From IMG/VR virus record IMGVR_UViG_3300033420_000009, positions 1 to 49,687 of that record: a stretch of 49,687 nt of DNA; one strand, given 5' to 3'. Shown here one piece after another: positions 4,355 to 22,846 of this stretch. The DNA comes from a virus. Its lineage: Duplodnaviria > Caudoviricetes. The notes beneath the pieces are model-generated. The model was not told where the DNA came from, made no database searches, and saw only the letters and a list, made by a program, of their open reading frames with translations. The stretch's first letter is position 1, and each line of letters starts with the position of its first letter. The translations under genes were made by a program, and so were the position numbers.

Positions 4355-4572
4355 TAATTTATGAAGTCATACGCATTGGTTTCCTTAAACTTCTTCATGA
4401 ACTCTTCGTACTTTTCTTTATTCTCAAATTTAATTGAGATTGTACCGAGTTCATCACGAGGATTAAGCTCACTGCTAATAATTTCTCCTCCAGATTCTCT
4501 TACATCGTCTTCATAACTACCGAGATCTCCTGAGTGCTCACACTCATAGAATTCAAATGTTCTTGTAATCAT
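4354..4572 (-). CDS. hypothetical protein
   Basis: TAATG overlap with downstream gene. Confidence 0.7.
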   Translation of the reverse strand: MITRTFEFYECEHSGDLGSYEDDVRESGGEIISSELNPRDELGTISIKFENKEKYEEFMKKFKETNAYDFIN

Positions 4573-4612
4573 TTTGCTATATTTAAGTTAATATTTCAAC
4601 GAAATCAATTTG

Positions 4613-4677
4613 TGGAGAGGAATGGATTCGAACCATTATCACCTCGCGAGCTGCACTAACCCTTATGCTACCTCCCC
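4613..4677 (-). ncRNA. tRNA-like RNA 2 with truncated anticodon arm (65 nt)
   Basis: acceptor GGGGAGG/CCTCTCC+A, D arm GCAT-AAGGGTTA-GTGC, T arm AATGG-TTCGAAT-CCATT; only 15 nt between D and T arms. Confidence 0.8.
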
Positions 4678-4682
4678 AATTA

Positions 4683-4777
4683 GTCGTTGCCTACCGTGCC
4701 AACTGTGCAAAGTGCCCTAATGCATTGATATAATGCAAGATACAGGGACTTGGCACACTTGGCAACTCGGCAACGGC
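4683..4777 (-). ncRNA. long rod-like hairpin RNA upstream of tRNA-like 2
   Basis: nested stems CGTTGCC/GGCAACG, TGCCAA/TTGGCA, TGTGC/GCACA, AAGT/ACTT, CCCT/AGGG, TGCATT/AATGCA. Confidence 0.6.
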
Positions 4778-4782
4778 ATAGT

Positions 4783-4935
4783 TTAACTACCAGCTGATAC
4801 AGTATACTTCTCAGTATGCATCAGCTTAATAACGCGATCTGTTTCCATATCGGTTAGATCTCGTTCTCTGCTTATAGCCATTAGAGCTTTTAGCTCATCG
4901 ACTTCTCTTAAAAGAGATGGTGATTTTTCTTTCAT
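4783..4935 (-). CDS. small hypothetical protein (50 aa, MKEKSPSLLREVDELKALM...)
   Basis: hand-translated; ATGA overlap with 4932..5207. Confidence 0.55.
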   Translation of the reverse strand: MKEKSPSLLREVDELKALMAISRERDLTDMETDRVIKLMHTEKYTVSAGS

Positions 4936-5207
4936 CGTCTTAGAATTATGGTGTCACCTACTATGTAGGATTCTAACATTCTTCTACTTACTGTAACACC
5001 TTTAGCCAAATCTTTCAACCTGTATTCTCTGTATTCTTTGTAAGTATTATTCTCAACAGATAACACAACAGCTTTGAATTCAGGATGTTCTGCATTGAAT
5101 TGACTCTTTGAATTGCCACATGAGGATAAAAATCCTATTGCCATTAATACAATCAGTATAATGGCTATTGTACCGAAAAATCGGTTTTCTGAAATTGTTT
5201 CTTTCAC
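4932..5207 (-). CDS. putative lipoprotein
   Basis: hydrophobic helix followed by lipobox-like LSSC; GTG start. Confidence 0.65.
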   Translation of the reverse strand: MKETISENRFFGTIAIILIVLMAIGFLSSCGNSKSQFNAEHPEFKAVVLSVENNTYKEYREYRLKDLAKGVTVSRRMLESYIVGDTIILRR

Positions 5208-5211
5208 TTGT

Positions 5212-5503
5212 TTAGGGATTAAGGTTGATTAATTTTAATGCTTCTATTAGTCCAGCTTCAAGAGCTTCTTCGTATGATTTTTGTGGTGGAATACTTCCCC
5301 ATGTTAAAGCAGGGTTTAATAGTTCTACTATTATAGCTCCCATTGTTGGGCTTATAACAATATGAATATTATGATTTTCTCTTAACCATTTCTGAAGTAA
5401 GGATTGAGTTGGAGGTAATCCATTTTTTAAATGATTTATTAAATCAAATCCTTTCTCTTTAGACAGCTTGGCTGTTTCGAATGTGATAAGTTGATCTGTC
5501 ATA
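5212..5503 (-). CDS. conserved Bacteroidota-phage hypothetical protein
   Basis: start reassigned to MTDQLITFETAKL; PTQSLLQKWLRE and YEEALEAG motifs typical of a recurrent phage family. Confidence 0.7.
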
Positions 5504-5530
5504 TATAATAGTTTAATTGGTTTAAAAAGA

Positions 5531-5720
5531 ACTACCTGTCCACTCCAAGTGTGGAATACCTCAGCTACAGTTGGATTAGCTACATCAACTCCCACCCTGG
5601 GTTTGGTATCTGAAAACAAACAGCGCTCCTTGGAGAGCTATAACTTATGGGATCAATGGTATTCAAAGATCAGCACCAATATTTCATGGTCCGGTTATTG
5701 TTTATGATTCAGCAGGTAGT
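5531..5720 (-). ncRNA. ~190-nt multibranch RNA immediately 3' of tRNA-like 3
   Basis: closing stem ACTACCTG/CAGGTAGT; internal CTGAA/TTCAG, ATAAACA/TGTTTGT, ATAAC/GTTAT, ATACC/GGTAT, TCCAC/GTGGA. Confidence 0.55.
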
Positions 5721-5722
5721 AT

Positions 5723-5807
5723 TGGGATGAGTTAGGGAATCGAACCCAATCTTGCAGGAATGAGATAGATAAGAACCCTGCCGTGCCGTCTGCTACACTC
5801 ACTCATC
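5723..5807 (-). ncRNA. tRNA-like RNA 3 with 18-nt loop in place of the anticodon loop
   Basis: acceptor GATGAGT/ACTCATC+CCA, D arm GTGT/GCAC, stem GCAGG/CCTGC around GTTCTTATCTATCTCATT, T loop TTCGATT. Confidence 0.75.
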
Positions 5808-5814
5808 AATGTGG

Positions 5815-5934
5815 TCCAATCCTTATGTGGTATCAAACAGGGATTTTCAGAGCGCGACTTCTGAGCTTGCCTACCGTGTATCCACTCCAGTAGAACTGGA
5901 CTTATGAGTAGTTATCTCACTGTATAGGATTGGA
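5815..5934 (-). ncRNA. stem-closed RNA upstream of tRNA-like 3
   Basis: TCCAATCCT/AGGATTGGA closing stem; TCCAG/CTGGA and TCAGA/TCTGA hairpins. Confidence 0.55.
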
Positions 5935-5956
5935 TAATATTTTAAATAGAAAGTTA

Positions 5957-6265
5957 CTCAGTGATACGTCTATATAGACACAAACAAAATCAAAATCAAG
6001 GGCAAAGACCTTTCTCTGCAACAAAGGCAAAGGCGAAAACTCAGTCAGTTTTGTAGTCTAATTTGTTCCCGAAGGATAACCTATACTACGATGTGGTATT
6101 TTTTGAAATCCACTAAAACATTTGGTTTTCACAGAGAAAGCGATTGGTTTTCAAGATTTTCTTTTTGCAAAAGAACATTGCATAAGTTATTTGTGTAAAT
6201 TTAAAGGACGTATCACTGGGCATAAAGAAGAGTAAACTCGGCTTTTGCTTTGTTTACCCTTCACC
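5957..6265 (-). ncRNA. ~300-nt structured RNA with hexamer repeats, 3' of the 308-aa gene
   Basis: 11-bp stem 6252-6262/6227-6237, 12-bp stem 6207-6218/5959-5970, 9-bp stem 6132-6140/6010-6018, cUUCGg loop near 6070; YTTGNY repeats at 5977-6010 and 6020-6040. Confidence 0.7.
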
Positions 6266-6274
6266 TTTGTATTA

Positions 6275-7201
6275 TTACTCTTTTGGAAGAGTAAAGAGGA
6301 ACATATCAACTACCGGCTGAAAGCGCTCATCGATATTTATCCTGAGTGCAACAAGCTCACTGATCTTAGATTGTCTGTCAATCTCAAACTGAGTTTGGAT
6401 TGTGCGGACTCTCTCTTGAATGACTCTGAATTCTCTCTGATACTGTACCATTAACTCATTATTCGAAGTTTCGTTATTCACTTGAGTAGTTTTGTTAATA
6501 GAGGCAATACGGGAATTCTCTTCAGTTACAAGGTTCTTCACCTTGGCTTTGAAGTAGTTCACTCTTTGTTCATACTCTCTGTGCTTTTGAGCAAGAGATT
6601 CATGAATTTCCATCAGTTGTTTGCTTGTGTGATGAGTGGTTATTGTAACTGGAGATTTAGTCCCTTCAGTTACTACCAACCATTCAATCGCAGGAATACC
6701 GGGAAGTTCTTTTCTGAGTTTATCCAATGGATTACCAGAATGAATGAACTGTCCAATATGAGCAGCGTATGCTTCAGCTTCCAGGAATTCGTTTACCTCG
6801 GATACTGTTAGCTGTTCCCATCCCCAATCTTCACCTACATTAGGTAAATCATCTTCCTCATTAAGAGTAGGATAAGCTGGATAAACGATACCAGAAATAC
6901 CAGCTTTGGAGCTTTTAACCTGAGTGATTAAAGCATCTTTAACTTTTATGTTCTCCATCAAGAATGCCTGACATGCTGATAATCTTGCTTTCTCAAGCAA
7001 TAGAGCTGTCACATTCTCCGGTAATGGCTTAGCTGCTACAATTGTGTGTTTATCACCAGCTATTTTCACAGACTTAGAAGCGTTATTCACGCCTGTAAGT
7101 ATTGAGGTCAACTCTATTACTCTCTGATTACAGAGATTAGAGATGGACTGAGCTTGTGACATGCTTAATCCTTTTTTCGCGGTCAATGAATGTTTTCTCA
7201 C
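6275..7201 (-). CDS. 308-aa predicted coiled-coil/helical protein of unknown function
   Basis: long ORF, GTG start after AT-rich leader; heptad-like Q/E/K-rich C-terminal half. Confidence 0.8.
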   Translation of the reverse strand: MRKHSLTAKKGLSMSQAQSISNLCNQRVIELTSILTGVNNASKSVKIAGDKHTIVAAKPLPENVTALLLEKARLSACQAFLMENIKVKDALITQVKSSKAGISGIVYPAYPTLNEEDDLPNVGEDWGWEQLTVSEVNEFLEAEAYAAHIGQFIHSGNPLDKLRKELPGIPAIEWLVVTEGTKSPVTITTHHTSKQLMEIHESLAQKHREYEQRVNYFKAKVKNLVTEENSRIASINKTTQVNNETSNNELMVQYQREFRVIQERVRTIQTQFEIDRQSKISELVALRINIDERFQPVVDMFLFTLPKE

Positions 7202-7246
7202 AGTTATATTGTATTTGGTTTATAGAAATAACAATTTTAATAGGTA

Positions 7247-7286
7247 ACTACACTCCTGCCTGTTACAACAAGAGTGTAGTCTTTTT
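7247..7286. promoter_or_regulatory. intergenic hairpin (terminator-like on +, or 5' leader hairpin of the 308-aa gene)
   Basis: ACTACACTC/GAGTGTAGT 9-bp stem followed by CTTTTT on +. Confidence 0.4.
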
Positions 7287-7291
7287 GGTAA

Positions 7292-7807
7292 TTACTGAGG
7301 GTATTCCATTTGTGGTTCCCTGTTATCAACTTGAACCGGAGCATTAGCATTCCATGAGGATAAAGAGGTATAATCTGTATTTCTTTTAATACCCTGATAG
7401 AACTTCTTTACCACTTTGTAATCAATATCTTCCCAAGATTTAGAAATGCTGTTTTTGTATGACTCATCAGCAGTTGCACAAGAATCAGCATCTTCCTGAG
7501 TTTTGAAATACCTAACAACAAACTGATGGTAATCATATTCATACTGAACTTTATCAATCCACATATTGTACTCTTTGAATCGGGCAAGACCAATAATTTC
7601 AGAGTGTTTAATTTCACTCTCAAGAGCAACTTCTTCAGGTTCGTATATACCCAACAATACTTCCATTGCTAATGTAGCATTTGGAGTTGCATTGATTATC
7701 TGCATAATAGCTTGGATATTTACACCTGGCATTTTGGATTCTAATGCTATTGCCATAATACGATCAATACCTGTTTCTTTTTTGTCTATTACTTTTACTG
7801 TTTTCAT
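7292..7807 (-). CDS. hypothetical protein
   Basis: start reassigned to MKTVKVIDK (ATG 7807) with AT-rich leader. Confidence 0.75.
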   Translation of the reverse strand: MKTVKVIDKKETGIDRIMAIALESKMPGVNIQAIMQIINATPNATLAMEVLLGIYEPEEVALESEIKHSEIIGLARFKEYNMWIDKVQYEYDYHQFVVRYFKTQEDADSCATADESYKNSISKSWEDIDYKVVKKFYQGIKRNTDYTSLSSWNANAPVQVDNREPQMEYPQ

Positions 7808-7840
7808 TGTATTATTTGTTTGGGGATTAGTTATTTTGTT

Positions 7841-8900
7841 CAGGTATAACTGTTGACCTGTATATTTTATGTTCCGAGTTACGTATTCTACCAGCCAGCA
7901 CACGCATTCATGGTGCATCTAATAAGATAGTGAATATAGTTTCACTTGGATAGCTCGAACAAAATGTCCCCTTTGCGGTAGTCTTACCTGCATTGCCTAA
8001 TAAGGGGATAAAATAGGACTTATCGTATGTGTATCCATGATAGTTCGCTGACCAGGCTAAGTTTGAGGGATTTACATCACATTGTTAGGTCATAATATGA
8101 AAACCACTGTTAATAATAATATTGGATGCTTATGATGTTCTGCTTATCCCGTGGACCTGTTACCGGCATCACCGATATGGATTAATTATCTCCACTCATA
8201 CGGAATCCCACCGTAGTATATCCTGCTGTAATCCACAGGACTTAATCAGGGTTTTTCCCTGATCCATATTGTAACAATTACACCCTGGGCTGACTAAATC
8301 GCTTTGTACCAGCCTGCACGATCAGAAGTATTGGACTTTCTATTGTAGCAGTATGAGTAATTGTTATGTGTCCGACTATACGGTTCACCGAAGTGAGTTA
8401 TGAATTGCACAATAATTTCAATGTGATATACTATTTACTGCGGCACTGTATATCAGAGTAGTAACCGATCTTGTTTATGAGGAGAGCAACTGTCCTATGA
8501 GGAGTACCAAGGATTGATATTTTAGTCCTTGGATTTCATTGTCGTGTATATTTTAATACAAATTTACATAGCACTTATCAAATGCTAATGGTCATGCTGA
8601 GACCCAAATTGTATCGAGCAATTATGCTCTTTTAGTACCGTTACCACACGGTCAGCAATACATTGTTCATGGTAAATAGAACAATGGATTAAGGTTTTAA
8701 GCTACCTATTTCAGGATCATCACTTCCTGATGGACGCTTCGTAATTTTATACTCTGCACTAACTTTGTGTTCATCTCTGTTAAAGATGGTATCAAATACA
8801 ACTGATTAACAGTCAATTGTATTAACACAATAGTAGCCCCATACGATTGTCACCGATTGATAACGGTAAAGAGAGCAGTTTAAAGACATGCTTAGGTCAT
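7841..8900 (-). ncRNA. candidate large (~1 kb) structured ncRNA or ncRNA cluster
   Basis: no credible ORF; more than 15 hairpins and long-range stems; strand inferred from flanking genes and a cUUCGg loop at 8385-8396. Confidence 0.55.
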
Positions 8901-9085
8901 AGAACTATGAATTAGGATTCACAGTCCATTCAACGAAGGTCAAGATACCTGCGATGATTGCTAATCTTTTCATAATGTTGGGGATTATGAGGTTAAAAAG
9001 GTCATATAATAGTATGCACAAGAATATGCATTTGAGAGAAATGGGTGAATATGGAGTGTGAGTTGCTGGGCAACGTACACACACA

Positions 9086-9271
9086 CTATCCACGCACTTT
9101 ACGCAGTACGAATTGCACAAATATTGCAGACACAAACAATAGAACTGCGATCAGTACATTAGCTGATTGTTCTGATGCTGTAATAGCATTAAATGTGCGA
9201 ACAACACAGACTGCACTCATGCAGAGTAGCATGATAGTGCAGAATGTAAATGGGATATGAACAGGTTTCAT
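9086..9271 (-). CDS. small membrane protein
   Basis: two hydrophobic segments. Confidence 0.5.
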   Translation of the reverse strand: MKPVHIPFTFCTIMLLCMSAVCVVRTFNAITASEQSANVLIAVLLFVSAIFVQFVLRKVRG

Positions 9272-9292
9272 AGATTAATGTGTAGCACACAA

Positions 9293-9319
9293 TAAAAAAA
9301 GCACTGGTTAAACCAGTGC
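9293..9319 (-). terminator. Rho-independent terminator overlapping the stop of 9308..9607
   Basis: GCACTGGT-TTA-ACCAGTGC followed by T7 on the minus strand. Confidence 0.8.
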
Positions 9320-9607
9320 ACTTTCTACGATTGCTTCGTGCTCTTTGCCAAGGGCAACGAACTGCGCATTAATCTGTCCTTTCAATTTATTGAAAGGCTT
9401 ATCGAACTTGTTCGTAGGATCCCAAGGTATAATCTCACCAACGGCATACGATTCATATTCGATAACTGTTTCTTCTGCTTTAGCATTGTGAAACAATTCA
9501 ACACCATTTCTCAGGGTAATAACATTACCTTTACGAGTTTCACCTTTTTTGTTGGTATACTCGAAGATGCCTGATTGCATCTTAACTGAACTTCTCAATA
9601 TCTGCAT
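9308..9607 (-). CDS. hypothetical protein (99 aa)
   Basis: start reassigned to MQILRSSVK; own terminator. Confidence 0.7.
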   Translation of the reverse strand: MQILRSSVKMQSGIFEYTNKKGETRKGNVITLRNGVELFHNAKAEETVIEYESYAVGEIIPWDPTNKFDKPFNKLKGQINAQFVALGKEHEAIVESALV

Positions 9608-12935: not shown

Positions 12936-12972
12936 CTTTTTTAGTTTACATTTGTTTTTACATTTTAGCAGC

Positions 12973-14187
12973 ATGGGAAAATTTACTACAATAGCACAAC
13001 GTGGGTATATCTATGTGATATATTATCATGGCGGTGAGAAATTCCAAGTAACCACCGGATTTCAAGTATCAGATCCTAAGAATCCTATTCCGAATCTCAG
13101 ACCATCGGATCCTCAGTTTAAACCTAAGACCGATAAGATCAATCAAATGCTCCAAGATATGTTCACGGCTAACTCACGCTTAAGAACAGCCAATGTGTAT
13201 CCGGACGTACATGCTCTACGAAGAGAATACTTTAAAGTAACTGGAGTAACCCCAGATGACTTCGGTAAACCTGAGAGTCACTACAAACCATTCTGGGACA
13301 TGTTCGAGGAGTACCTCAATACTAAGAGAATATCCAGATCTCCTACTACGATCAACAACTATAATCAGTTTAAGAGTGGACTGCAGGAGTATTGTAAGAT
13401 GGACCAGTATGATATCACATTCAAAGGATTTGAACAAGTACAGTTCGGCAGGTACATTCAATTTCTTACACTAAAGAAAAAGAACCTGAAGGACGAGGAC
13501 AAAACCGAGATCAATGTATTTTCAGAGTCTACCATCAATAAACATGTCCGGTGCTTGACCGCGTTCTACAAGTGGGCGTATCCGGAACTACCAAGGACAC
13601 ATTTCAGTTACGAGTGGAAGAATGTGCATAACGTACACCCTCTGTATGAAGGGGAACTGAAATACTTAATTGAATCCGAAGATGTTCCGGAGTACCTTAG
13701 AAGAACTCGGGATCTATTTGTGTTCTGCTGCTGCACAGGAATGCGCTATTCGGACTCACAGAACTTCAAGGACTATTGGGTGGACAATGGAGTGATTGCT
13801 TACAACCAGATTAAAACCGGCGGAGATGCCATAGCCCCGCTTGTTAATGCAGCCAATATGGTCCTGGTTCGTTATGGAGCGACTACTCCAAAGATTCCGA
13901 ATCCGGTCTATAACTGGCAACTGAAAGAACTATTCAAGATCCTAAATATCATTCGGGCAGTAGAACTCTACGATTCCAAGACCAGACGTAGAACTCTCGT
14001 ACCATTCTTCGAACAGGTTACTACTCACACTGCACGAAAGACTTTTGTAACACTTGCCCTTGAGAAAGGAATAGCTGTCCAAGACGTAATGCTTATGTCC
14101 GGTCATCATGACTTTCGGGCAATGCGTCCTTACATTAAAATATCCAGGGAGCATCTTAGAGAACAGAGTAAGAAGCTTCAGTGGTAA
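12973..14187 (+). CDS. int: tyrosine integrase (Bacteroidota phage-integrase/SAM-like type)
   Basis: catalytic TGMRYSD, KT, HTARKTF, SGH, Y; likely start MGKF at 12973 with TACATTTG -7 element at 12947-12954. Confidence 0.93.
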   Translation: MGKFTTIAQRGYIYVIYYHGGEKFQVTTGFQVSDPKNPIPNLRPSDPQFKPKTDKINQMLQDMFTANSRLRTANVYPDVHALRREYFKVTGVTPDDFGKPESHYKPFWDMFEEYLNTKRISRSPTTINNYNQFKSGLQEYCKMDQYDITFKGFEQVQFGRYIQFLTLKKKNLKDEDKTEINVFSESTINKHVRCLTAFYKWAYPELPRTHFSYEWKNVHNVHPLYEGELKYLIESEDVPEYLRRTRDLFVFCCCTGMRYSDSQNFKDYWVDNGVIAYNQIKTGGDAIAPLVNAANMVLVRYGATTPKIPNPVYNWQLKELFKILNIIRAVELYDSKTRRRTLVPFFEQVTTHTARKTFVTLALEKGIAVQDVMLMSGHHDFRAMRPYIKISREHLREQSKKLQW

Positions 14188-21415: not shown

Positions 21416-22846
21416 ATGGCTTCTGACAATGTTTCAAAATTGCGTCTTTACGAAGACACCTGGAACGCGGAGAGCATGACAGACGAGAATTCCCTGGCGA
21501 ATGCGTTGCTGACTCAACCCGATGTTCTTTCTCCTGTACTTACTCATCTCGCAGGTCGCGAAGACAAGAGGTTTCCTCTTTCCTTCTTGACTGAAGGTAT
21601 GGGTAATGTAAAACAGATCAATGGTATCGAATATGATTATCCAGTAATGGGTCGTCTAAACAAAGCGGTAAAAGCTATCGCTGTATCAGGTACCGGTCTG
21701 GGATTCTCTATTTTCGAAATCACTTTCGCTGAAAAGTGGTTCGTAAGACAGTACATTATCGAGAACCCCGCTGGAAAGCAGGCTCGTATCGTGGCTGATC
21801 CTATTCCTGTCCAAGGTGGTTACAAATACCCTGTTCAGATTGTAAGTAATGACCCAGCAGATTTCTTTGCTTCCGCCGACGTTATTGGTAGAAACTTCGT
21901 ATCTCTGTTTGCTCCTGTTGCTGCATCTGGATCAAGAGGTAATGAATCACATTGGGTTGCTCCTTCCAAGATGCGTAACCAGATCACACACATCAGGAAA
22001 TCCTATCGTTATGAAGGAAACATTCCTAACCGTGTTGTGAACGTAGAGTTCAACATCGATGGAAAGAAAACTACCTTATGGTATGATTTCGAAGAGTACC
22101 AGCACATGCTTCGCTGGAAAGAAGAAGTAGAATACAATCTTTGGTATTCCAAGTACAACAGGGATTCCGCTGGAGCAATCCACTTAAAAGATGAAAACGG
22201 GAACGTGATTCCTTTGGGTTCAGGTCTTATCGACCAAATTCCTAATACTGATCAGTATGCAATCCTGACAGCTAAAAAACTGAAAAATGCTGTAAGAGAC
22301 GTTCTCTACGGTGCTTCAGATGCTTCACAGATGAACATCCTGCTTTATTCAGGTATCGGTGGATTAGAAGAATTTGATAATGCTATGAAGAGCGAATTGG
22401 GCGCTGGAGCATACATCAAAAACACTGATCCAAAATCTTTCGTAACTGGTAGTGGAAGAAACCTCACCCTTGGTGGATTCTTCACAAGCTATCAGCACAT
22501 CGATGGTCACACTATCACAGTGAGACATCTTCCTCTTCTGGATCACGGCGCTCGCGCTTTGAACTCAGATAAACACCCTATCACCGGTCTTCCTTTGGAA
22601 TCGTACAAAATGATCTTCGTTGACCATTCTGTATATGATGGTGAATCAAACATCAAGCTCGTAACACAGAAGGGTCGTGAGATGCTTCGTTGGGCTGTTG
22701 CAGGTTCTACTATTCCTCCAGGATTCTCTGGAAATGCTCTTCGCGCTACTGACGTTGACGGTGCATCCGTACACTTCATGAAAGCTGCCGGAGTTGCAAT
22801 TCGCAGAGCAACCAATTGCTTAACCCTTGATTGCGTAATGTCGTAG
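21416..22846 (+). CDS. major capsid protein (crAss-like)
   Basis: 476 aa; TDENSL, MRNQITHIRKS, G.GLIDQI, GGFFTSY.HIDGH motifs; followed by a strong terminator. Confidence 0.88.
   Translation: MASDNVSKLRLYEDTWNAESMTDENSLANALLTQPDVLSPVLTHLAGREDKRFPLSFLTEGMGNVKQINGIEYDYPVMGRLNKAVKAIAVSGTGLGFSIFEITFAEKWFVRQYIIENPAGKQARIVADPIPVQGGYKYPVQIVSNDPADFFASADVIGRNFVSLFAPVAASGSRGNESHWVAPSKMRNQITHIRKSYRYEGNIPNRVVNVEFNIDGKKTTLWYDFEEYQHMLRWKEEVEYNLWYSKYNRDSAGAIHLKDENGNVIPLGSGLIDQIPNTDQYAILTAKKLKNAVRDVLYGASDASQMNILLYSGIGGLEEFDNAMKSELGAGAYIKNTDPKSFVTGSGRNLTLGGFFTSYQHIDGHTITVRHLPLLDHGARALNSDKHPITGLPLESYKMIFVDHSVYDGESNIKLVTQKGREMLRWAVAGSTIPPGFSGNALRATDVDGASVHFMKAAGVAIRRATNCLTLDCVMS

Follow-up and report, generated by a model that had tools for sequence, protein, structure and literature searches.

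A hatchet ribozyme cassette with a covarying, predicted second cut site in an ORF-free tract of a crAss-like phage

Introduction

What does a phage encode in about 1.05 kb of DNA that holds no credible open reading frame? The question is raised by positions 7841-8900 of the 49,687-nt viral record analysed here (the window, meaning this whole stretch of DNA), a tract that sits amid small minus-strand genes of a presumed early region. An earlier note had proposed that the tract specifies a new RNA of the size class of the large phage RNAs GOLLD and ROOL, or else a cluster of RNAs. The tract is very probably not one giant RNA; it starts with a hatchet ribozyme cassette, followed by 660 nt that appear to be separate. 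For hatchets themselves, no established biological role was found in the available text of the two main descriptions of the class (PMC4604424, PMC6561176).

Results

Setting and coding content of the tract

The phage is assigned to the crAss-like group by a crassvirus-type capsid protein encoded at 21416-22846, which matches the Pfam family Crass_capsid (PF23898) with an E-value of 1.8e-80; a terminase and a portal protein are also present in the 49.7-kb window according to PHROGs matches. The terminase is 25-39% identical to the matches found in 27 of 50 other virus records, and the three loci with the closest terminases (100%, 94% and 94%) lie on contigs that stop short of the tract. A tyrosine integrase gene (12952-14187, plus strand) adjoins the terminase gene in this crAss-like phage. 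The genes nearest to the tract are the following:

6275-7162, minus strand: 295-aa conserved gene of unknown family, with 2458 homologues
7292-7810, minus strand: 172-aa gene of unknown family, directly downstream of the tract
8905-8973, minus strand: 22-codon ORF just upstream of the cassette, the C-terminal part of ORF 8905-9135

The absence of a credible gene from the tract is confirmed, the longest ORF wholly within 7841-8900 being 46 aa long (table 11), and alternative codes open no gene there either, with stop-to-stop frames of at most 63 aa when TAG is read as glutamine and at most 71 aa in table 4. A 208-aa ORF (7292-7918, minus strand) extends 78 bases into the tract by way of an upstream ATG, although its true start is likely at 7810, given the A-rich leader. 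The description of the genome as otherwise compact applies less uniformly, as further gaps exist, for example at 5620-6275. The 172-aa gene has no relative among the viral contigs, ORF 8905-9135 has no Pfam match, and a sigma-70 promoter scan was uninformative (8 sites versus 11.6 expected).

A tRNA search with ARAGORN finds none, and Rfam gives atypical tRNA-like elements that ARAGORN missed. On the minus strand these are 4613-4677 (47.1 bits), which has no anticodon loop, 2726-2836 (44.5 bits), which has a long anticodon arm and an extra arm, and a weak match to the tRNA-Sec model at 5725-5808 (E 2.3). The loop-less element is immediately preceded by a near-perfect long hairpin at about 4683-4770 (minus strand; TTGCCGAGTTGCCAAGTGTGCCAAG ... 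CTTTGCACAGTTGGCACGGTAGGCAA).

Folding of the tract and matches to known RNA families

All nine helices that had been named in the tract are found in their places; one of them, TCAC-TTCG-GTGA, reads so on the minus strand, the plus strand being TCACCGAAGTGA. Perfect helices of at least 6, 7 and 8 bp are, however, no more numerous over the tract than in shuffled sequence, their counts being reached by 11, 12 and 9 of 60 shuffles, respectively. The folding energy of 7841-8840 does exceed that of shuffles (z -3.6 on the plus and -3.0 on the minus strand, 20 shuffles), but the excess is confined to 8501-8869, where z is -3.7 on the minus and -5.0 on the plus strand and none of 60 shuffles is equally stable. 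In 7841-8500 the respective values are -0.25 and -1.4, with 23 and 6 of 60 shuffles equally stable. Windows near but outside the tract fold as well or better, with z down to -5.2 at 9281-9400. On the upstream side, the minus-strand region 8900-9340 equals the cassette in folding strength (z between -3 and -5) and contains a terminator-like hairpin (9319-9301) and two small hydrophobic ORFs.

Rfam was searched at gathering scores over the whole window and at E<=5 over 4400-9400. There is no match to GOLLD, ROOL, OLE, RNase P, tmRNA or introns, and the one family found in the tract is Hatchet, at 8873-8739 on the minus strand, which was absent from the earlier reading of this DNA. Besides it, the tract shows at E<=5 only a sub-threshold match to AdoCbl-II (E 0.31). 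The proposal of a new RNA of GOLLD or ROOL size is thus not borne out, since no large-RNA family appears at E<=5 and the first part of the tract is a self-contained hatchet cassette. As for a cluster of RNAs, the upstream 370 nt are indeed a structured minus-strand RNA, whereas the 660-nt remainder has neither a folding excess nor a homologue.

The hatchet ribozyme core

The following elements make up the ribozyme (arrows mark predicted or potential cut sites here and below):

8739-8869, minus strand: hatchet core with P1 (UUACCG/CGGUGA), P2 (UCGUA/UACGA), P3 and a long P4, from RF02678 and inspection
8869-8870, minus strand: predicted 5′ self-cleavage site CUCU↓UUACCG, with U1 at 8869, from the Rfam alignment
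8874-8892, minus strand: P0 hairpin with a weak 4-bp AGCA/UGCU stem, before the 5′ cut site, from the sequence
8777-8812, minus strand: P4 hairpin loops CUGUUAA (8812-8806) and UUAACAG (8783-8777), a predicted kissing loop with 7 complementary bases

The match to RF02678 scores 73.4 bits against a cut-off of 51 and covers the full length of the model (1-133). The stems P1-P4 are present, P1 being 6 bp long and P2 being UCGUA/UACGA, and by eye all of the conserved bases C20-A22, U28-G31, G63-G66 and A73-A75 (numbering of PMC6561176) are in place, from which the core of the cassette is, with near certainty, a hatchet ribozyme. In published hatchets the cut lies at the base of P1 (PMC4604424, PMC6561176); the stems are defined as P0-P4, P1 has either 3 or 6 bp, P0 is found before about 90% of hatchets, and cleavage leaves a 2′,3′-cyclic phosphate and a 5′-OH (PMC4604424). 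In the window, P0 is found at 8892-8874.

The stem of this P0 lies within a hairpin motif, CCTRAGYAWG...AAACTRCTC (window 8874-8896), of which 39 copies occur in 29 of 121 loci (L121-L241), between early genes. The motif serves as P0 here, yet it also occurs without a hatchet and is possibly a promoter or processing signal. Complementary P4 loops are present in 7 of 22 clusters with a long P4, as six different word pairs, and arise in 1 of 30 shuffles of the P4 of the window.

A guide loop and a distal site

Beyond the core, the unit continues to a second site that resembles the first:

8750-8754, minus strand: guide loop GAGU(A), corresponding to env10 G66-U70, from covariation across five guide words
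8498-8506, minus strand: distal second target UACUC-C↓UCA, the sole such site in 448 downstream bases
8507-8532, minus strand: terminal hairpin CCAAGGA...UCCUUGG, which precedes the distal site as P0 precedes the 5′ site
8501-8869, minus strand: predicted excised RNA of 369 nt, possibly circular, from the two sites

The UACUC of the distal site pairs with the guide, GAGU at 8754-8751 facing ACUC at 8505-8502. C8501 remains as a free base at position -1, and the UCA that follows can pair with the UGA of the P1 3′ strand, replacing the first three pairs of P1. At the 5′ site, bases -2 to -4 can also pair with the guide; the match there is 3 bp, compared with 5 bp at the distal site. The distal end thus copies the 5′ cut site, the preceding hairpin included. 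A third look-alike, GCTCTCC↓TCA (8476-8485, minus strand), lies 20 nt past the distal site and, like the 5′ site, matches the guide over 3 bp.

Comparative survey of hatchet units

Hatchets were gathered from viral contigs by pattern (120 and 39 loci) and by synteny with the 295-aa gene, the homologues of which have a hatchet upstream in 4 of 80 viral loci (L139, L173, L176 and L178). Rfam confirms Hatchet in 15 of the 17 collected loci that were checked. In nearly all units the downstream region closes with a hairpin and then NNTC(C/A/G)T, in which NN tracks the two bases after GUGC(A/G)GA. In a loose test on 179 distinct regions, CGTC was found in 90 of 100 GACG units and in none of 75 GACT units, and ACTC in all three GAGT units; for AGTC (as AGTC[CAG]T) the counts were 71 of 75 among the GACT units and as many as 62 of 100 among the GACG units.

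A stricter rule was applied to 143 distinct units from other phages, each with at least 330 nt downstream; it requires four Watson-Crick pairs with the guide, then a single free base, a U, and a triplet able to pair with the 3′ strand of P1. The 143 units are related, the largest clusters holding 20, 22 and 13 near-copies. A distal site is found in 141 of them, all except L015 and L079, compared with a mean of 9.4 and a maximum of 16 in shuffled downstream sequence. The site follows the guide when guides are swapped. GACG scores in 80 of 81 GACG units and in 0 of 57 GACT units, and GACT in 56 of 57 GACT units and 3 of 81 GACG units, although other wrong guides give a higher background in the GACG units (GATT 36 of 81, GAGT 13 of 81). 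Altogether five guide/target pairs are seen, GACG/CGUC, GACU/AGUC, GAGU/ACUC, GACA/UGUC and GAUG/CAUC, spread over 36 clusters of units with a site, defined at 70% passenger identity; two of these clusters contain double changes. The P1 pairing varies likewise in L235, which has UUA at the 3′ end of P1 and, correspondingly, UAA as its distal triplet.

The GAGU/ACUC pair of the window is rare, the window being one of four such lineages seen, and its terminase is at most 39% identical to those of the hatchet-bearing phages compared. Retrieval with the GAGU word of the window alone gave 77 loci, of which 71 were dropped for want of a hatchet 5′ half; three of the six kept are one chance sequence, two are repeats of L003 and L049, and the one new locus, L294, has the predicted UACUCC↓UUA after a hairpin. 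Among held-out genome contigs (120 loci, 115 of them not hatchets), the strict-rule site is present in all five hatchets, with 0.22 expected; two of the five are new sequences.

Several further properties relate the two ends of the unit. The 5′ flanks share the register of the distal site, with U at -3 in 137 and C at -2 in 128 of the 143 units, whereas a full guide match is present at the distal site in 141 and in the 5′ flank in 44. Position -1 of the distal site is occupied by A or G in 46 of the 141 units, while 5′ flanks never have G there. A hairpin stands before 61 of 101 distinct distal sites, compared with 365 of 2020 random passenger positions (18%). Units are 162-479 nt long with a median of 305, a range that includes the 369 nt of the window. 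After the distal site a gene often begins within 20-55 nt, and otherwise tRNAs or other small modules are found; long non-coding trailers occur in L207 and L210.

Other elements were noticed in these loci. About 380-560 nt past the distal site, L207 has a hatchet-like variant in which P1 and GGCTTATGTC/GCATTAGTGTC are present and the CAA and TGGGGC of the core are missing. L139 (5400-5590), L178 (3990-4200) and the trailer of L210 share an element GCACTA ... GAGCAGTTGTAA ... TTACAACTGAGTGC that encloses variable inserts and has no Rfam match at gathering score. Past the hatchet units of L018 and L042 lies a tRNA gene that by eye is interrupted by an ORF and a nested tRNA; the ORF has in-frame TAG codons and, also by eye, an HNH-like motif.

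The passenger and a second allele

Between the core and the terminal hairpin lies a passenger, and both are spanned by an interval that differs in a second allele:

8533-8738, minus strand: structured passenger with several hairpins, from folding
8497-8902, no strand assigned: interval that differs in the second allele of run X1 (microbial mat), spanning P0 and the cassette

The region 8495-8745 folds with z -3.5, none of 200 shuffles being as stable. Loop A of the passenger, UUACCA (8675-8670), is complementary to loop B, UGGUAA (8646-8641), and UCAGCA (8600-8595), the loop of hairpin C, is the complement of the strand UGCUGA (8657-8652). Relatives have UCCAC/GUGGA, AUUCCA/UGGAAU, CUCAC/GUGAG and ACCACA/UGUGGU at a similar place, although BLAST shows no link between the passenger and those of the relatives. 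With a loose descriptor, which has a false rate of 27%, the A-S-B-C layout is recovered from 10 of 16 long passengers and from 52 of 192 shuffles, which lends moderate support to a shared layout.

In run X1 the second allele departs from the window at 8496 and returns at 8903, with a depth of 10.9 compared with 25.3 for the window allele and 36.2 for the downstream flank, and it is not a clean join of 8870 to 8500. The joint of this allele was recruited at 80% likeness with 30-base sides, at which other organisms could enter, and X1 is possibly the source of the window itself.

The 660-nt remainder

7841-8500, minus strand: ORF-free remainder of 660 nt, from the distal site to the hairpin at 7860-7841

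The second cut would make the 5′ end of this stretch, which is closed by the hairpin 7860-7841, 30 nt before the ATG at 7810. It contains several helices of 7-10 bp, and its best-folded part, 8170-8365, has z -1.5 on the minus and -2.5 on the plus strand. No homologue of the remainder was found by blastn among 50,697 phage records, nor by blastn or nhmmer in the fetched loci. BLAST against 50 whole virus records gave only chance-level matches of 15-30 bases, in 14 of the 50, and two single-sequence covariance models, a weak type of model, matched only their own record among the 50. Rfam has no match here at E<=5. A second ribozyme was also sought in the remainder (HDV-like, twister, hammerhead, pistol or a degenerate hatchet) and rejected, with none at E<=5 and, by eye, only look-alike words without the core bases. 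Searches for relatives of the locus gave two weak loci by way of the 98-aa upstream gene, two distant loci by way of the ligase and, in a metagenome scan, 14 loci at 41-59% besides the contig of the window itself. In X1, a relative present at low depth (3) has 7260 joined to 7834, so that the 295-aa gene's leader meets the end of the tract and the 172-aa gene is missing. The simplest reading of the remainder is a long leader, or else one further module or several; that it is a new large RNA is a minor possibility.

Discussion

A model for excision and circularization

On the sequence evidence, it is fairly probable that the 369-nt cassette cuts itself at both ends and then closes into a circle, the next 660 nt being separate. 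The parts of this model differ in strength. Docking of the distal strand on the guide is very probable, a second cut at the distal site is likely, and the chances that a circle is a main product appear to be even.

In the model, the early transcript would first be cut between U8870 and U8869, leaving a 5′-OH as in all hatchets assayed. The distal strand would then dock on the guide, its UCA displacing U1-A3 of P1, and would be cut between C8501 and U8500, leaving a 2′,3′-cyclic phosphate. Finally, U1-A3 would pair again, and the 5′-OH and the cyclic phosphate, both held in one active site, could be ligated. The junction of such a circle would rebuild a cleavable site with the terminal hairpin serving as P0, and the circle would carry the kissing-loop passenger. 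The cuts would also punctuate the early transcript of the phage and give the downstream RNA a 5′-OH end.

Published data bear on the model in several ways. In the hatchet crystal, A67-U70 pairs between two molecules (PMC6561176), which shows that the loop is exposed and able to pair; we infer that the loop of the crystal dimer is the guide and that the crystal construct stops before its natural partner. The rule that P1 has 3 or 6 bp fits an exchange of three P1 pairs. Hatchet 3′ products also remain active and cut off ligated adapters, according to the available text of PMC8782182. On the other hand, mutation of A67-G69 to UUU leaves 5′ cleavage of a minimal construct intact (PMC6561176), which indicates that the first cut does not depend on the guide, whose pairing could be structural only.

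Other readings of the two sites

Both sites may be cut while the 369-nt piece stays linear or is degraded, its role being to punctuate the early transcript and to provide a defined downstream 5′-OH. The sequence evidence for this is the same as for the circle, a gene start lies within 20-55 nt of the distal site in many units and a tRNA in others, and no report of hatchet self-ligation was found in the available text of PMC4604424 and PMC6561176. However, a single cut would already free a downstream 5′-OH, the full guide match at the distal site (141 of 143 units versus 44 for the 5′ flank) would keep the end with the cyclic phosphate positioned for ligation, and the layout of the passenger appears to be kept, all of which make a linear fate unlikely.

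Alternatively, the distal strand could dock on the guide and P1 and stay uncut, acting either as a clamp for a stable linear RNA or as a competitor of the 5′ flank that regulates the first cut. Such a role would agree with the dispensability of the guide for 5′ cleavage (PMC6561176) and with the -1 base being more variable at the distal than at the 5′ site, and the covariation is explicable by pairing alone. Yet it would leave superfluous both the exact register of a cut site, with four pairs, a free base, U and three pairs competing with U1-A3, and the P0-like hairpin, and it is considered quite improbable.

Splicing in the manner of a small self-splicing intron, in which the upstream piece with its cyclic phosphate would be joined to the downstream piece with its 5′-OH held in P1, is highly improbable. 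Both flanks would indeed use the same active site and guide register, and the crossing of guide and P2 would resemble the P7/P3 pseudoknot of group I introns. The 5′ flank, however, pairs weakly with the guide (3 bp here, in full in 44 of 143 units) and would lose its tether once the first cut is made, the tract matches no group I or II model, and the second allele of X1 shows no clean 8870-8500 join; the better guide match of the distal site (141 versus 44) favours a circle over exon joining.

Equally remote is a single large ornate RNA of the GOLLD/ROOL class over the entire 1.05 kb with its 5′ end made by the hatchet, as the lack of an ORF, the whole-tract z of -3.0 to -3.6 and the several 7-10 bp helices in 8500-7841 stand against the lack of a large-RNA family at E<=5, a remainder at z -0.25 and -1.4, cassettes of relatives that end at the distal site, often right before a gene, an X1 second allele that differs over the cassette only, and the lack of any homologue joining cassette and remainder.

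Returning to excision with circularization, the model may be extended tentatively, at somewhat less than even chances, to the class as a whole. Rather than minimal motifs with a single cut, hatchets would then be self-excising and self-circularizing cassettes in which a four-base guide chooses the second site, and crAss-like phages would produce with them small RNA circles whose kissing-loop passengers can be exchanged. In the present phage, a further 660-nt RNA absent from the catalogues would then begin at the second cut.

Comparison with known systems

The cassette belongs to the hatchet class and carries an extension for which no published description was found. It shares with the published hatchet (RF02678; PMC4604424, PMC6561176) the P0-P4 layout, the core bases and the predicted cut at the base of P1, which here has 6 bp. 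P2 is where the published model stops, whereas the unit described here is about 240 nt longer and ends in a covarying second target. In the crystal (PMC6561176) the loop that forms the dimer is palindromic, while GAGU is non-palindromic and has an intramolecular partner. A literature search covering main texts found none that describes hatchets with a second site, with pairing to a guide or with a circular product; the words "pseudoknot", "downstream" and "phage" are absent from the available main text of Li et al. 2015 (PMC4604424). The class model would be enlarged by a guide with a covarying second target, which would also offer a reason for both the palindromic crystal dimer and the 3-or-6-bp rule of P1. 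A further difference from the published hatchet is that P4 here bears two complementary loops.

Next, group I introns carry an internal guide sequence, and the excised intron circularizes; they contain a P7/P3 pseudoknot and react by guanosine attack, with a terminal G at the 3′ site and a U-G pair at the 5′ site. The likeness lies in a guide loop that reads the bases before the cut, in one core with two sites and in a possible circle. There is, however, no Rfam match, group I and II models giving none in the tract at E<=5 and one of chance level (E 4.1) at 7673-7717, inside a gene, and the sites here are U↓U and C↓U, with no terminal G or U-G pair. The chemistry also differs, as hatchets leave a 2′,3′-cyclic phosphate and a 5′-OH (PMC4604424) in place of a guanosine attack.

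The tract resembles GOLLD, ROOL and OLE (available text of Kretsch et al. 2025, PMC12286853) in its phage location, its ORF-free size and its predicted kissing loops, and tRNA-like elements lie 2-5 kb from it. It differs from them in that no model matches at E<=5, the tract is in two parts and the covariation support is limited to the 369-nt cassette.

Finally, the proposed reaction is akin to that of the ribozyme pairs and the hairpin or hammerhead ribozymes that circularize satellite and viroid-like RNAs by cleavage and then ligation of cyclic-phosphate and 5′-OH ends (available text of PMC6765202). In contrast to those systems, one core would here serve two different sites in the transcript of a DNA phage, and no rolling-circle replication is implied. 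If the model is correct, a single small ribozyme that excises and circularizes itself from a DNA-phage transcript would offer both a new way to circular RNA and a compact tool with which to produce RNA circles.
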